Shown here: in pieces, positions 11,323 to 43,946 of the stretch
Position numbering within the stretch: position 1 is the stretch's first letter
Layout: each line of letters starts with the position of its first letter
From: a virus
DNA: 64,000 bases
IMG/VR virus record: IMGVR_UViG_3300045256_000135
Coordinates: 64,001 to 128,000 of that record
Reading direction: 5' to 3' (one strand)
Translations under genes and position numbers: made by a program
Notes under the pieces: model-generated
Told to the model about the DNA's origin: nothing
Databases searched by the model: none
What the model saw: the letters and a program-made list of their open reading frames with translations, nothing else

Positions 11323-13719
11323 ATGACTACCAAAAGATGGAATTCTGACATCATTATCCCAGGTTCGAGCTATGGTGACGTTCGGCGTCAAGCTTCAGCT
11401 CCTCTTCCTAGTCAGGATCCAACGATCCACGGGATGACAGTCAATCAAGCTGCTGCTTTGAACAGCAGGTTTGACGAGATGATGCCTCGTCTAGCTTCTG
11501 CAAACCCGCACACCACTAAGCGAGATTTGTTCAGTGGCGATCTTCCGAAGGGAGCAACTTGGGCTCCACGCACTGCCAACTTCGGTGGGGGCGCGATGGG
11601 GGTTTCTGGCCTAAACAACAGTGGAGGGGGCGGTCGCAATATGATGACCGTCCAGAAGCCCTACCAGCCTGAGTTTGCTTCCTCTGATCGACAGAACTAT
11701 CCTGTTCACCGCATCCTAGCTAATCGTTACTGGCGTTTGTTTATCAAGCTTGACCCCGTCATTGGTACGGGTCTTGACATGTACAGCGAGATGCCTTGGA
11801 GCGATTGCAAGCTCACCGGAGAAGGTGTCGAGGGTGAGGTGCGATCTGTTTACGAGGCGATGTGGGAGAAGTGCTCTGTTCTGAGCGTTCTTCCAGCGAT
11901 CGTAAGAGAGTTTCTTGGCCTTGGTGAGTGCATCCCCCATTGCTTCTTTGACAACAGTGAAGGGATCTGGACCTACATTGCTCTTCACGATCCTGATACG
12001 CTTGAGGTCATTGACGCTCCATTCATCAGAATGGATCCAGTTGTCGAGTTTGTTCCGGACGACCGTCTTCGGTCGATTCTGACCAGCACTGACCCAGAGC
12101 TTGCTGTTATCAGATCGAAGATGCCTCCCGAGTTACTAGCTCGTTTGCAGAGCCGGCAAAACATCCGGATCAACACTGAGACGAATGCAACGTTTCTTGC
12201 GAGGAAGTTGCATCCGTATGAGACTCGAGGAACTTCGATCCTCTCAAGAATGTGGCGTGTCCTCATGTACGAGGATGCGATTTTCGAAGCATCACTTGCT
12301 ACCGCTCGGCGCCATGCTGGGCCTTTGAAGATCGCCAAGTTGGGAAATCCACAGACCAACTGGATTCCTGGACCTGAGCACGAACGTCGGTTCATGGAGC
12401 TTGTTGCTCAAGCAGAGATGGACCCGCATGCCTGGATTGTGTATCACTACGGCCTCTCGTTGGAGGCGTTTGGTACCACCGATCGTGTTCTGACCATCAA
12501 CAAGGAGTGGGAGATCATCGAGAGGATCAAGCTGGCAGCGCTTGGCATCTCTCGAAGCTTCCTCAGTGGTGAGCTTACTTATGCATCCGCTACTGCTGGT
12601 CTGCAAGTGTTTCTCCGTCGAGCACTCTCGATGCGAAACTATCTTGAGTCCGCCTGGCTGAAGCCAAAGTTCTTCAAGCCAGTTGCTGAGATCAATGGTT
12701 TCTACAAGCCAACTCCAGCAGAGGTAGCCCATCGAACCAAAGTCAAGCGAACAGCTCAGCAAGCTAGAGACGAAGGACGTCTCATCATTCCAAAGATTGA
12801 GTGGGCTAACAAGCTCAGTCCCTCGATTGAGAATGATCTGCTCAATGCCTACAACACTCTGGAGAAGCAATTGGGCGTTCGGATCTCGAAGACCAAGAAG
12901 ATGGCAGTAGCCAACCTCTCATTCGAAGAGGAGTTGAAGCGGTCGCTAGAAGAGGACAAGTTCGAGGACGATGTTCGCAAGCTGCACGGGGTTGATGATA
13001 AGAAGACTGACCCGGCTGAGATTCAGAAGATCATCGACAACACAGACGAGACAAAGGACGATGATTCTAAATCAGAGGGGAAGCCAGATGCTGGTCCTGA
13101 CAACACACACGGTGGCAAGCACCCGCCAAACCCAATGCTGAAGCAAGACCAGCAGTATCAGGAGTCCGAGAAGGTTAATCCTCCAGCTCTCGAAGGGCCA
13201 CAAGCTGATCCGGTTGACAACCCTGGACCTGTAGACAAAGGGTTGGGTAACGACTCAACTGACAAGTTCTGGGGTGCAAACCGAAAGTTCGGCGTCTGGG
13301 AGCAAGATGACATCGAGGGGCTGATCGATCTTCTTGAAAGTGGAGAGACTGAATCTGCCTTCTGGTCAAAGCTCACGCCGAAAGTTGTGAAAAAGCAGAT
13401 CAAGCACCCCGATGGGTCGTATGTCTTTACGAAAGTCCTCGAAGGTTACGCTCCGTACAAGGCACTTCAGAACGGAGACCAAGATTCAGCTTGGGAGCAG
13501 ATTGAAGCCTTTCTTGACGAGGAGGGTTTCCCGCCAAAAGACATAGCTGATCTGCAGAAGATACTGTACCATGAGGGCACGTTTGAGTCGCCACATGAGA
13601 AGTTTCTCGAAGCTTTACCTGAAGATCCGAGCCAGCTCTCTGATGAAGCATTCGGCAAGCTATTCGCCGAAAAGGTTGAAAACCACCCTTTAGCCCAGAG
13701 GGCGCGGAGAGCTCGGTAA
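11323..13719 (+). CDS. Portal protein with acidic C-terminal extension
   Basis: DPVIGTGLDMYSEMP, LHPYETRGTSIL, ALGISRSFLSGE...YA motifs typical of large-myovirus portals; position between terminase and MuF/protease. Confidence 0.8.
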   Translation: MTTKRWNSDIIIPGSSYGDVRRQASAPLPSQDPTIHGMTVNQAAALNSRFDEMMPRLASANPHTTKRDLFSGDLPKGATWAPRTANFGGGAMGVSGLNNSGGGGRNMMTVQKPYQPEFASSDRQNYPVHRILANRYWRLFIKLDPVIGTGLDMYSEMPWSDCKLTGEGVEGEVRSVYEAMWEKCSVLSVLPAIVREFLGLGECIPHCFFDNSEGIWTYIALHDPDTLEVIDAPFIRMDPVVEFVPDDRLRSILTSTDPELAVIRSKMPPELLARLQSRQNIRINTETNATFLARKLHPYETRGTSILSRMWRVLMYEDAIFEASLATARRHAGPLKIAKLGNPQTNWIPGPEHERRFMELVAQAEMDPHAWIVYHYGLSLEAFGTTDRVLTINKEWEIIERIKLAALGISRSFLSGELTYASATAGLQVFLRRALSMRNYLESAWLKPKFFKPVAEINGFYKPTPAEVAHRTKVKRTAQQARDEGRLIIPKIEWANKLSPSIENDLLNAYNTLEKQLGVRISKTKKMAVANLSFEEELKRSLEEDKFEDDVRKLHGVDDKKTDPAEIQKIIDNTDETKDDDSKSEGKPDAGPDNTHGGKHPPNPMLKQDQQYQESEKVNPPALEGPQADPVDNPGPVDKGLGNDSTDKFWGANRKFGVWEQDDIEGLIDLLESGETESAFWSKLTPKVVKKQIKHPDGSYVFTKVLEGYAPYKALQNGDQDSAWEQIEAFLDEEGFPPKDIADLQKILYHEGTFESPHEKFLEALPEDPSQLSDEAFGKLFAEKVENHPLAQRARRAR

Positions 13720-13739
13720 AACCGAGAGTTCTCCACGCC
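13686..13739 (+). promoter_or_regulatory. Putative programmed -1 frameshift signal (C CCT TTA + hairpin) joining portal to MuF
   Basis: X XXY YYZ heptamer 13686-13692 in portal frame, 8-nt spacer, ~16-bp hairpin 13701-13739; -1 frame open from 13680 into the MuF ORF. Confidence 0.65.
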
Positions 13740-13814
13740 GAAGACACCTTCCTGATTGGTGAAGGGAACGGAACGCGACATAGAGCACGACCTGGTACTA
13801 GAGCAGCTGACTTC

Positions 13815-15707
13815 ATGTTCTCTCGAAGTGGTGATATCCGCACCGAGAAACAAGTTCAGCAGTTGATCCATGGTGTCAACTGCACTTGCCACAAAACTGC
13901 GATAAAGACACCTGACTTTCTAGCTCCGAAGAACTACGAGAGTCGGGAACACTGGCAGAAGCGATTGCACCTAAGCAAGATCCCGCTTGATGCAAAACGC
14001 TACATCAAACAGCTTGAAAATGACGTTATTGACGGTAACGCCAAGTCGTTTGAAGCCTTGTGGAGCAAGATTGAGAAGGTTCTCGAAATGCCTGGTGGGT
14101 TGAGCCAGTCCACGTTAGTTGGCCTGATTGATTCAGCTCTCGCAACCCAACTCAATCATGTGGATCGCGGTGCTATCGATAATGCACTGACCGGTCTGTA
14201 TAGCTCTGGCAAGGAGCATGCGTACAGCCTGACAGACTTTAAAGCGAAGAAGATCAAGCGTCTGAAGAAACTGTCCTCTAAGCAGGCCTTCTTGAAGGAG
14301 GCGGTAACAATTGACACGGTTGAGGACAAACTTATGCTCCAGCATCTGAAGGAGACTGCTCTTAAGAATGTCAAGAGCATAGCGAACAAAGAGCTTAGGG
14401 ACAAAATCCTCGAAGCTCTAACTGCTGCTGGGTCTGAGAACGAGAATCCGCTTGAGCTCGCGAATAAGATCATCCAGGAAGAGTCAGAGAAGCTCAAGGA
14501 AAAGGGCAAAGAGCAGTTCAAGAAGATGCTTGAAGAGCTTTATGGAAAGCAGCAGTATCAGATTCAGCGCATTATGCGTACAGAGTCGATGAATGGCTTC
14601 GTACTAGCACAACTTCAAGGTTACAAAGAGCAAGGCATCGTAGCTGTTCGTTGGAAAGCGTTACAGAACGATCCAAAGGTATGTAACCTCTGCAAAACAC
14701 TTGACGGGAACACGTTCGAGATTGAGTACCTACTGTCTGAGGGTGGACGTTATCCTTTGACGTTTATGAGTCACCCGAACTGCAGGTGTGGGTTTGAGCC
14801 TGTTATAGCATTCGTGTCTTTCGATGATTTCGAAAAAGAGTATGCAAAGACACACCCGGATCAGTTCATTCAAGGTGAGCCTATCTTCAACGAAGAACTG
14901 CTCGGTCTAGAAGACATTCTGAAAGACTTCAAGGCTGGTTCGACGAAGTTTGATCGTGTTCCAGTTGAGCATGCCGAAGAGTTGGAGTCGTTTGCCAAGA
15001 AGGTTGACAACTCACCACTGGCTGACTCAGCACCACCACAAGTGAAGTTTGTGCAGGATGTGTTTGAGACTGATGCGTATCAACAGCGAGGCCGAACTGA
15101 TGAATCGAAGAAAGGTCAGGTCGACTCTTGGTATGATCCGGAAACAAAGACGACCTGGGTCTCTTCATACGCTACGCAATTCTCTTCCCCAAGTGAGGTA
15201 ATGGCTCGTGACTGGGCATCAAGAGTCTGGAGAGATAATGGCACAGTCAGGAAGTGGTTTACGTCACACTTTGATGGTGAGACTGTCTCCGACAGAAAAG
15301 TGTCCCCAGCAGCACTGGAGATACTCCAGCAAACCTTCAAGCCATTTGCTCTAGCGAGCACCTACTACCTAGAGTCTGGAGACGCTCTGGGGTTGACAGC
15401 AAAGACTCGAGCCCTACCAGAGGATCAATTGCGAGAGATACTAAGTAAGCTTGGGCTCTCGAAAACTGATGTAAGCTCGGTTTTAAAGGGAAGAGATAGC
15501 CATACACTGTGGTCGATGACTAGTGGAGAGGTAGTAGACACAGAAGAAACGAACAAATTCGTTTCTGAGCACTCACGTAACTCAGCCCTTCAACTGTTCG
15601 TAGACTCGTTTGTGAGTTACGTAACGTCTCCTTACATACTAGAACACAAAGATCCCAAAGCGTTTGAGTTTCTCAGAGACTCTGTGTTCAAGGGCGAGGC
15701 ATTCTGA
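13815..15707 (+). CDS. MuF / SPP1 gp7-family head morphogenesis protein with C-terminal extension
   Basis: RIMRTE...W..LQNDPKVCNLC..LDG...HPNCRC signature; reading frame open upstream to 13680. Confidence 0.85.
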   Translation: MFSRSGDIRTEKQVQQLIHGVNCTCHKTAIKTPDFLAPKNYESREHWQKRLHLSKIPLDAKRYIKQLENDVIDGNAKSFEALWSKIEKVLEMPGGLSQSTLVGLIDSALATQLNHVDRGAIDNALTGLYSSGKEHAYSLTDFKAKKIKRLKKLSSKQAFLKEAVTIDTVEDKLMLQHLKETALKNVKSIANKELRDKILEALTAAGSENENPLELANKIIQEESEKLKEKGKEQFKKMLEELYGKQQYQIQRIMRTESMNGFVLAQLQGYKEQGIVAVRWKALQNDPKVCNLCKTLDGNTFEIEYLLSEGGRYPLTFMSHPNCRCGFEPVIAFVSFDDFEKEYAKTHPDQFIQGEPIFNEELLGLEDILKDFKAGSTKFDRVPVEHAEELESFAKKVDNSPLADSAPPQVKFVQDVFETDAYQQRGRTDESKKGQVDSWYDPETKTTWVSSYATQFSSPSEVMARDWASRVWRDNGTVRKWFTSHFDGETVSDRKVSPAALEILQQTFKPFALASTYYLESGDALGLTAKTRALPEDQLREILSKLGLSKTDVSSVLKGRDSHTLWSMTSGEVVDTEETNKFVSEHSRNSALQLFVDSFVSYVTSPYILEHKDPKAFEFLRDSVFKGEAF

Positions 15708-16652: not shown

Positions 16653-16756
16653 TCTGTTACATCGAGTAAGAGCAGTGCTCGCCGTATACTCGATGTGGTT
16701 TCCTGAATCGAGAAATAGATTCGTACTGACGAACTGTATCTTCTTTGAAGAAGTTC

Positions 16757-17674
16757 ATGTTCGTCAAGACTGCTAAAGCTGATGTACTCGCGCATTGGGA
16801 GGGACAGGGTGGCACTCTGTCCCGTACAGCAGGGTTAGAAAAGACAGCATCACACTTCGTTCAGAATGCTGGACGTATCGATGTGACATCAGCTCTAGCT
16901 GATGTAGCTGCATTCTACAACATCAGCTCAAATCCGCAGGACTACTTCTTCATTCCAGTACGTGCCAATTCAATCGACGTTCCAAACGAGAACGGCGATT
17001 GTTTCATGAATGGTGAGATGCTTCGATTTGATCCCAAGCTGGGTCGTCGAGTGTATCAAACCTACATGCTGAAGCCTCACCACGTCAACCACAGAGCTGA
17101 TAACCCACTTATGGCTCGTGGATTTATCGTTGACGTGCACTACAATAATCAGAATGCAATGCCTGATGAGTGGCGGAAGAAGTACGCCGATGCCACAGGT
17201 GTTGATCATCCACAGGACTTGTTCATCGAAGCTCTGCTTGCTGTTGATTCGACCAAAGACAAGCATTTAGCTGCCGGACTAAAGAGTGGACAGATCAAAG
17301 CATTCAGCATGGGCTGTGAATGCGCTATGACAGAGTGTTCAGTTTGTGGCAATCAAGCTACGAACAGGATGCAGTTCTGCGCTCACATTAGAACTGGCAA
17401 CAAAAACAAGCTGTTCTTTTCAGAGAAACTCGGTCGTAACATCAAAGCATTTGAACGTTGCTATGGTGTTTGTTTCTCTGAGTTGTCAGCCGTCGATACT
17501 CCGGCTGATCCAAGAGCTTTTGCCTCTGGTGAAGTTTTCCAACTGCATGCTAGCTCCCAGGTTGATCGGGAAGAGCTACTGCAGATTGTCGCATTCGCAA
17601 AGAAACACAAGGACTCCATGCCGAAGACTCTACAGGGTTTTTTGGCGGAGGTTCTGAATGACTATGCTGAATAA
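16757..17674 (+). CDS. Putative prohead (capsid maturation) protease
   Basis: PNENGD, HHVNH, AFSMGC and ELSAVDTPAD resemble HK97/assemblin-type serine protease motifs, with a Cys-rich insert; sits between MuF and scaffold. ATG 16757 preferred. Confidence 0.7.
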   Translation: MFVKTAKADVLAHWEGQGGTLSRTAGLEKTASHFVQNAGRIDVTSALADVAAFYNISSNPQDYFFIPVRANSIDVPNENGDCFMNGEMLRFDPKLGRRVYQTYMLKPHHVNHRADNPLMARGFIVDVHYNNQNAMPDEWRKKYADATGVDHPQDLFIEALLAVDSTKDKHLAAGLKSGQIKAFSMGCECAMTECSVCGNQATNRMQFCAHIRTGNKNKLFFSEKLGRNIKAFERCYGVCFSELSAVDTPADPRAFASGEVFQLHASSQVDREELLQIVAFAKKHKDSMPKTLQGFLAEVLNDYAE

Positions 17675-21624: not shown

Positions 21625-21664
21625 AAAGAGAGGGCTGGTTGGAAACAACTAGCCCTCTCTTTTT
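21625..21664 (+). terminator. Intrinsic terminator after MCP
   Basis: AAAGAGAGGGCTGGTTG-GAAA-CAACTAGCCCTCTCTTTTT. Confidence 0.9.
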
Positions 21665-21676
21665 GTGTCTGGTATA

Positions 21677-24379: not shown

Positions 24380-24387
24380 TCTAGCCT

Positions 24388-24428
24388 AAAGAAACAGAGG
24401 GTTGCATACAGCTTCCCTCTGTTTCTTT
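24388..24428 (+). terminator. Intrinsic terminator (possibly bidirectional)
   Basis: AAAGAAACAGAGGG ... CCCTCTGTTTCTTT inverted repeat. Confidence 0.8.
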
Positions 24429-24475
24429 GTTTACGTTTTCGAAACGTTGCACAATAATCTTGGCTGAGGAGTCAC

Positions 24476-43789: not shown

Positions 43790-43821
43790 ATCTAGGGTCG
43801 ACCTCTTGGTTGGCCCTAGAT
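43790..43821 (+). terminator. Stem-loop after the lipoprotein gene
   Basis: ATCTAGGGTCGACC-TCTT-GGTTGGCCCTAGAT; only a weak U tract. Confidence 0.55.
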
Positions 43822-43946
43822 TCACGTTTAAACAGTCTCTAGTTGAAGCAGACTCCATACTGATATACATGCTAAGGGCGTTACAGAACTCCGTGTAGAG
43901 ACAAGTCTGGAAACGCTACGTAGGTAAATAGCTCTCCGGAGAGGAC

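Follow-up and report, generated by a model that had tools for sequence, protein, structure and literature searches.

A stretch of 64,000 nucleotides (nt) of viral DNA, which spans positions 64001-128000 of a virus record that is 183,244 bp long and is rated as complete (IMGVR_UViG_3300045256_000135), was examined at the junction between its portal gene and the gene for a MuF-type head protein; this whole stretch is called the window below. The two genes lie in different reading frames, and a programmed −1 ribosomal frameshift at their junction probably makes both a plain portal protein and a portal–MuF fusion. This reading is built on signals and a frame anatomy that are observed directly, on coding conservation of the −1 frame ahead of the annotated MuF start codon, and on natural portal–MuF fusions found in relatives. 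The elements concerned are as follows.

11323..13719, + strand: portal gene, zero frame; open reading frame (ORF) of 798 amino acids (aa), matching phrog_16240 portal protein (E 2.6e-78)
13677..13679, + strand: TGA stop of the −1 frame, 2 codons 5' of the heptamer; 5' limit of the interval in which a shift can occur
13686..13692, + strand: slippery heptamer C CCT TTA within portal codons AAC CAC CCT TTA, in X XXY YYZ phase
13693..13700, + strand: spacer of 8 nt between heptamer and hairpin
13701..13739, + strand: imperfect hairpin of 16 bp, −24.1 kcal/mol, a putative frameshift stimulator
13717..13719, + strand: TAA ending the zero frame of portal, within the loop of the hairpin; closes the interval on its 3' side
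13692..13814, + strand: −1-frame linker codons 5' of the MuF ATG, without a start codon of their own, encoding a conserved linker
13743..13766, + strand: DTFLIGEG motif of the −1 frame, seen as D-x-F/Y-L-x-G-x-G in alignments of fusion proteins
13815..15707, + strand: MuF / SPP1 gp7-like head morphogenesis gene, 630 aa as the gene caller sees it

In the proposed mechanism the majority of ribosomes would end at the TAA at 13717-19 and release the 798-aa portal, whose C-terminal tail is short and Arg-rich (AQRARRAR). A fraction would pause at the hairpin (13701-13739) with CCU in the P site and UUA in the A site, slip in tandem one base back to CCC UUU, and read on in the −1 frame through the linker (DTFLIGEG) into MuF, yielding as a minority product a fusion of 1462 aa (791 + 671 aa). 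A preliminary description of this DNA had also predicted a portal–MuF fusion, with a size of ~1461 aa that is adjusted here by the computed length. The MuF ORF at 13815..15707 is likely to be the C-terminal part of the proposed trans-frame product. Fusion subunits would be built into the portal dodecamer with MuF toward the capsid interior, and the slip rate would set the number of MuF copies per head. We infer the slippage itself, its rate and its role in stoichiometry; the underlying observation was confirmed, and the frameshift interpretation, while unproven, is supported by comparison with relatives.

Putative slip site, frames and hairpin

The frames at the junction agree with what had first been noticed: C CCT TTA stands in X XXY YYZ phase at 13686-13692, and the −1 frame, closed by the stop at 13677-13679, has no further stop until that of MuF at 15707. 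Since the −1 frame is stopped at 13677-79 and the portal frame at 13717-19, a shift is possible only within 13680-13716, an interval of 37 nt that is bounded by a stop in each frame and has the heptamer inside it. The portal frame meets its stop 8 codons past the heptamer, and the −1 frame runs on for 671 codons. Its first ATG, GTG or TTG is the ATG at 13815, 129 nt past the slip site and separated from the portal stop by a gap of 95 nt. The preliminary description had remarked that this ATG lacks a clear Shine-Dalgarno (SD) sequence, which is true but uninformative, as only 15 of the 38 long + strand ORFs of the window have even a 4-nt SD-like match upstream.

The hairpin, described earlier as about 16 bp and lying 8 nt beyond the heptamer, was recovered as 16 pairs at 13701-13739. 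Folded alone it has a z score of −6.07, and none of 200 shuffles folds as well; in an 81-nt context the energy is −30.9 kcal/mol (z −3.57, again 0 of 200 shuffles). On the + strand of the 64-kb window, only four clusters of 45-nt segments fold at −24 kcal/mol or lower. Three of them have the form of canonical terminators, each with a T-run close behind a stop codon, which leaves the hairpin studied here as the single non-terminator of this strength. That it could itself be an intrinsic terminator was ruled out, the stem being followed by CCACGCCGAAGACACC and no T-run, and a pattern scan of the + strand over 13300-14100 found neither a terminator-like nor a promoter-like site. A search for known RNA families at the hairpin gave nothing beyond a chance-level miRNA match.

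A larger fold of 85 nt (13685-13769, −39.3 kcal/mol) was also seen, in which the heptamer pairs with GAAGGG at about 13760 and encloses the hairpin; this pairing may represent an extended structure or an artefact of folding.

Other roles for these signals were considered and set aside. The octamer CCCTTTAG is not a dispersed regulatory motif, occurring once in the window against 1.02 expected, and its three copies in the 183-kb genome against two for a reversed control give no enrichment. A conserved intergenic element combining heptamer and hairpin was likewise dropped: it has a single case, L001, which could be due to chance, and the downstream gene of L001 has no detectable homology to the window MuF. 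In that locus (Virus Rctr197k, L001:7224-7430), the portal stop is followed at 13 nt by CCCTTTAG with a GC hairpin, and beyond the stop the portal frame is open for 67 codons to a TAG abutting the GTG of a 998-aa gene; both neighbouring genes are annotated in the record only as misc_feature.

Natural fusions and the conserved linker

The decisive evidence for a joining of portal and MuF, as far as sequence comparison can indicate one, is the existence of fusions among the relatives, for which loci are cited by L numbers and proteins by P numbers. The window MuF diverges fast: a word-indexed search returned only eight proteins, the best of them besides the window's own protein being 34-50% identical over the aligned part. 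An exhaustive HMMER search with MuF gave 15 proteins at E <= 1e-30, among which the first three and two others are long and carry their MuF match C-terminally, namely P0131 (1911 aa, 47%), P0132 (1950 aa), P0133 (1464 aa), P0135 (1431 aa) and P0138 (1161 aa). All five begin with portal, and the two longest carry inteins. P0133 matches window portal residues 15-787 at 54% identity, the match ending just 5' of the heptamer codons. Natural in-frame fusions, which the preliminary description had suggested looking for, thus exist and are the closest relatives of the window MuF.

Portal and MuF also share one open frame at five loci for which DNA is available (L050, L051, L061, L005 and L063). The closest relative with DNA, L050, is 62% identical in portal and 43% in MuF; its portal match stops at E787 of the window, and its match to the window's −1 frame starts at codon 3 of that frame. 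The spot of L050 that is homologous to the window's heptamer reads C CCT TTT, in phase as in the window (L050:3525), although the L050 fusion is in frame. Matches of relatives by tblastn and phmmer begin at residues 3-21 of P0001.

A profile of the junction was built from 10 in-frame fusion junctions (five loci and five proteins). Its positions 4-113 match the portal frame of the window, ending at 13686, and its positions 125-201 match the −1 frame, starting at 13719; it follows that the 45 codons before the MuF ATG encode a conserved linker. The linker of the fusions is therefore colinear with the portal frame and then with the −1 frame, switching between 13686 and 13719. On its own, the 45-aa peptide encoded ahead of the ATG (13680-13814) scores 9.4 bits against the profile (E 5.5e-5), a score reached by none of 2000 shuffles, and the other two frames give no match and −2.5. 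The Met encoded at 13815 is not conserved among relatives in the alignment. Conservation of the linker, together with the lack of any earlier start codon, indicates that the −1 frame already codes for protein 5' of the annotated MuF start, and that it can be entered only from portal.

Several searches extended this set little. No match to positions 13000-14600 was found among phage records by blastn, and neither the single-protein MuF query nor P0132 retrieved a relative from viral contigs. With P0131 as query, viral contigs gave 12 loci, all only distant portal relatives; with P0004 they gave only L076, which shares a contig with L005. Among full-length portals P0004 (811 aa) is the closest, at 66% identity, and a Pro/Arg-rich tail follows directly after its AFGRIFAEAV, at the position of the window's shift site; its C-terminus may be another frame-broken junction.

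Points against a frameshift and alternative explanations

A number of observations weigh against a programmed frameshift and have to be set beside this evidence. The heptamer by itself is not rare, six in-phase X XXY YYZ sequences being present in the 806-codon portal frame, three of them with A or T as Y. The expectation that relatives would share the hairpin was not borne out in L050, whose homologous region has no significant structure (z +1.0); and at 62% (portal) and 43% (MuF) identity even this nearest relative with DNA is too far away for covariation of the stem to be assessed. The A-site tetramer U_UUA slips only 1.8-3.6 times above background in E. coli (PMC4066793). The host of this phage may behave differently, and a low slip rate would suit a low-copy MuF. 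An ATG is present at 13815, and its missing SD sequence means little in this window. The contigs that confirm the frame break, described below, come from runs of one sample that is possibly the window's own source, and they are not an independent population. Finally, in 18 more distant portal relatives the frame of the next gene opens only at least 100 nt past the portal stop; other distant relatives have overlapping or adjacent starts. The downstream genes of the distant relatives are not detectable homologues of the window MuF, and their separate genes imply that recoding would be a feature of the MuF-homologous clade and not of the whole portal family.

Given that the closest relatives are in-frame fusions and that the record is a metagenome assembly, the frame break might be an error of assembly or sequencing, the true gene being an uninterrupted fusion. 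We examined the break in Logan contigs of runs labelled hot springs or microbial mat metagenome. In X1 (depth 30) and X2 (depth 44.6), contigs that span 13200-14200 show 0 differences and 0 indels, and a third, low-depth contig from X5 is identical over 13666-13914; nor does CCC TTT form a long homopolymer. The DNA consensus thus truly contains the frame break, and an error of a single assembly is excluded; with the common sample as a caveat, we consider an artefact of this kind highly improbable.

A recent fission of an ancestral in-frame fusion, through loss of one base in the T-run of the linker, deserves more attention, though we regard it as unlikely. The portal would then end at 13719, MuF would be made from the ATG at 13815 or not at all, the frame before that ATG would be a young relic, and the hairpin would be incidental or serve mRNA stability. 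Deletion of one T from the in-frame C CCT TTT GGC that L050 has at the same spot would indeed produce the window's arrangement; the ATG is at hand, in a window where most genes lack an SD sequence anyway, and relatives at a greater distance as a rule keep portal and the next gene separate. MuF is moreover dispensable in SPP1 (PMC6316719). Against these points, a chance deletion would not supply a hairpin of −24 kcal/mol exactly 8 nt 3' of the heptamer, when only four clusters of that strength occur in 64 kb and three are terminators. All 45 codons of the −1 frame before the ATG are open, with the motif kept. The Met at 13815 is not conserved, the 95-nt gap past the portal stop is without a promoter-like site, and frame-broken junctions persist across diverged lineages (L060 and the five loci with a candidate +1 shift described below). 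Both routes could also operate together, with free MuF initiated at 13815 and a portal fusion made by frameshifting, as the ATG and the slip signals are both present and the sequence excludes neither; initiation at 13815 has no positive sign in the form of an SD sequence or a conserved Met, however, and we think this combination quite doubtful. A programmed −1 frameshift is the reading that we consider probable.

Related junctions, known systems and genomic setting

Among the relatives the same junction is found in other states. L060 has the polarity of the window with a different heptamer: an in-phase A AAA AAG is followed 7 codons on by a zero-frame stop, and 683 codons of the −1 frame then lead via DTFLTG into MuF, the first start codon lying 87 nt 3' of the slip site, past the DTFLTG motif. 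Among the in-frame fusions, L051 offers a single in-phase X XXY YYZ site over 1442 codons, A AAA AAG at L051:3973; A AAA AAG occurs twice in L063 (1962 and 1995), and L061 has C CCT TTT at L061:4073, followed 6 nt on by a 7-bp GC hairpin (z −2.54); T TTA AAG at L005:6290 is the weakest case. A −1 slip in the five in-frame fusions would reach a stop after about 2-24 codons and give plain portal, the polarity of dnaX. All seven loci outside class B have an in-phase heptamer in the linker, which is suggestive of an enrichment of such heptamers in fusion linkers; no formal p-value was assigned, since Lys-rich linkers favour A-runs and the sites of L060 and L063, and those of the window and L050, are shared by descent. 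A structural stimulator is significant only at the window and L061, the 11 other sites tested being not significant.

A further group of five diverged loci, L052, L053, L056, L057 (which equals L058 and L059) and L036, carries an invariant CCCTTTCG at the portal/MuF junction, at the following positions.

L052:2650-2657, CCCTTTCG
L053:3910-3917, CCCTTTCG
L056:1590-1597, CCCTTTCG
L057:447-454, CCCTTTCG
L036:8616-8623, CCCTTTCG

Read in the portal frame it is CCC TTT CGN, while MuF occupies the +1 frame, and these loci are candidates for a +1 frameshift of the UUU_C type. A conserved GGRGGTGG, which encodes poly-Gly codons and is SD-like, lies 15-20 nt 5' of CCCTTTCG. In four of the five, a GTG 17-20 nt upstream could alternatively start MuF; in L052, that stretch is closed by a MuF-frame stop just 5' of CCCTTTCG. 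The zero-frame tails past the slip sites are basic in the window, in L060 and in the five +1 loci.

It is possible, and we put it forward tentatively, that the portal–MuF linker is a selected recoding hot-spot in this clade of large phages, with three interchangeable solutions: an in-frame fusion with an in-phase slip site that would release plain portal, a −1 shift that leads to MuF, as proposed for the window and L060, and a +1 shift on CCC_UUU_CGN into MuF. Were this so, tailed phages would widely fix the ratio of plain to MuF-bearing portal by recoding, with a reach comparable to that of G/GT. The in-frame, −1 and +1 junctions of the relatives would also provide a natural series on how recoding sites arise from fusions or revert to them.

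Two irregular loci were noted in passing. At L056:2821-2823 a single in-frame stop interrupts an otherwise conserved MuF (ATEEF*KAVELPE) and could be an error, a mark of a pseudogene or a recoded stop. In L047 (L047:6537-6594) the portal stop is followed, 24 nt on and in the same frame, by an ORF of 1298 aa.

The classic −1 frameshifts of phages are those of the tail chaperones G and GT, the lambda case having reportedly been worked out by Levin et al. in 1993, and the tau and gamma subunits of E. coli dnaX arise by a −1 frameshift on A AAA AAG. The junction proposed here resembles G/GT of lambda and most long-tailed phages in that −1 slippage connects two structural genes, at an X XXY YYZ heptamer late in the first of them, with the long product in the minority and the product ratio thought to matter for assembly. 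It differs in the pair involved (portal and MuF), in the strong hairpin 3' of the heptamer, and in that the product would be a virion component and not a chaperone. With dnaX the window shares a heptamer and stem-loop that would give two proteins with a common N-terminal part; its polarity is reversed, the shift giving the long product, its heptamer is C CCU UUA and not A AAA AAG, and an SD-like stimulator was not identified upstream of it. A slip in the in-frame fusions L050, L051 and L063 would lead to a stop after 3-13 codons, the same polarity as in dnaX. The G/GT frameshift in most long-tailed phages was documented by Xu, Hendrix and Duda (2004), as cited in PMC7302621 and PMC7911831, and the dnaX frameshift was measured as a control in bioRxiv 10.1101/2025.10.02.679949.

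In-frame portal–MuF fusion genes are on record for Microbacterium phages of subclusters EA3, EA5 and EA8 and cluster EB (PMC7302621). They have the domain order of the window, portal followed by MuF, and indicate that such a fusion is viable as a virion protein; they are single ORFs for which no recoding is reported, whereas the window's halves are in different frames. In SPP1, according to PMC6316719, the MuF protein gp7 binds the portal gp6 and reaches the procapsid in few copies, in line with what the preliminary description had stated of gp7. A frameshift of low rate, by linking the two covalently, would have the same outcome, entry of MuF via the portal in few copies; the SPP1 proteins are separate and associate non-covalently, and the window MuF is related to gp7 by family profiles only. 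For the five +1 loci, the nearest parallel is the UCC_UUU_CGU motif of influenza A PA-X and the +1-prone tetramer UUU_Ynn (PMC5009743). Their CCC_TTT_CGN in the portal frame, with MuF in +1, fits UUU_Ynn, with the differences that it is the relatives and not the window that are concerned, that a GTG start is an alternative in four of the five, and that the host is prokaryotic.

We found no description of a frameshift at a portal–MuF junction in open-access papers and preprints, and the word portal is absent from the PRFect paper (PMC10885494), from the Atkins 2016 review (PMC5009743, first 300,000 characters) and from bioRxiv 10.1101/2025.10.02.679949. What would be new is the gene pair, for which canonical −1 recoding had not been described; the kind of recoding and in-frame fusions are known. 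The route by which MuF/gp7-type proteins, often fused to toxins or enzymes, attain their defined low copy number in heads is known only for SPP1, and a frameshift that tethers MuF to some of the portal subunits would be a simple genetic means of setting it. If the reading is correct, the annotation would need correction, as the MuF start is wrong and a ~160-kDa fusion is missing, and phage structural modules would have a second widespread site of recoding.

The genes themselves were assigned by profile and by position. The portal ORF matched 321 phage records by tblastn, many of them annotated as portal (for example Bacillus phage G, 31%); among named matches Virus Rctr197k ranks first, with 43.5% identity. 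Against Pfam the portal ORF gave no match. The MuF ORF is borderline in Pfam, with PF04233 at E 4.3e-6 and 27.9 bits for a cut-off of 29.6. It matches phrog_4728, head morphogenesis, at 7.9e-17, and also phrog_115, minor head protein; P0123, the same protein as the window MuF, carries a precomputed PF04233 annotation. MuF lies directly downstream of portal within a head module, the position characteristic of the MuF family, and is followed by a prohead-protease-like ORF. The further features of the window are the following; the three probable terminators are the strongest + strand hairpins apart from the one at the junction.

16745-17674: prohead-protease-like ORF, completing the order portal, MuF, protease
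21625-21665, + strand: probable intrinsic terminator of a late operon, perfect GC-rich stem and T-run just past an ORF end
24387-24430, + strand: probable intrinsic terminator of the same description
43790-43825, + strand: probable intrinsic terminator of the same description

Many portal genes of this family contain inteins or homing-endonuclease insertions, one to three per gene (PF14528, PF14890, PF05203 and PF07591). Portals bearing them include P0131, P0132, P0010, P0061, P0064 and P0076, as well as L015 and L029-L044, and an insertion is found within MuF too in P0128, L036 and L063.

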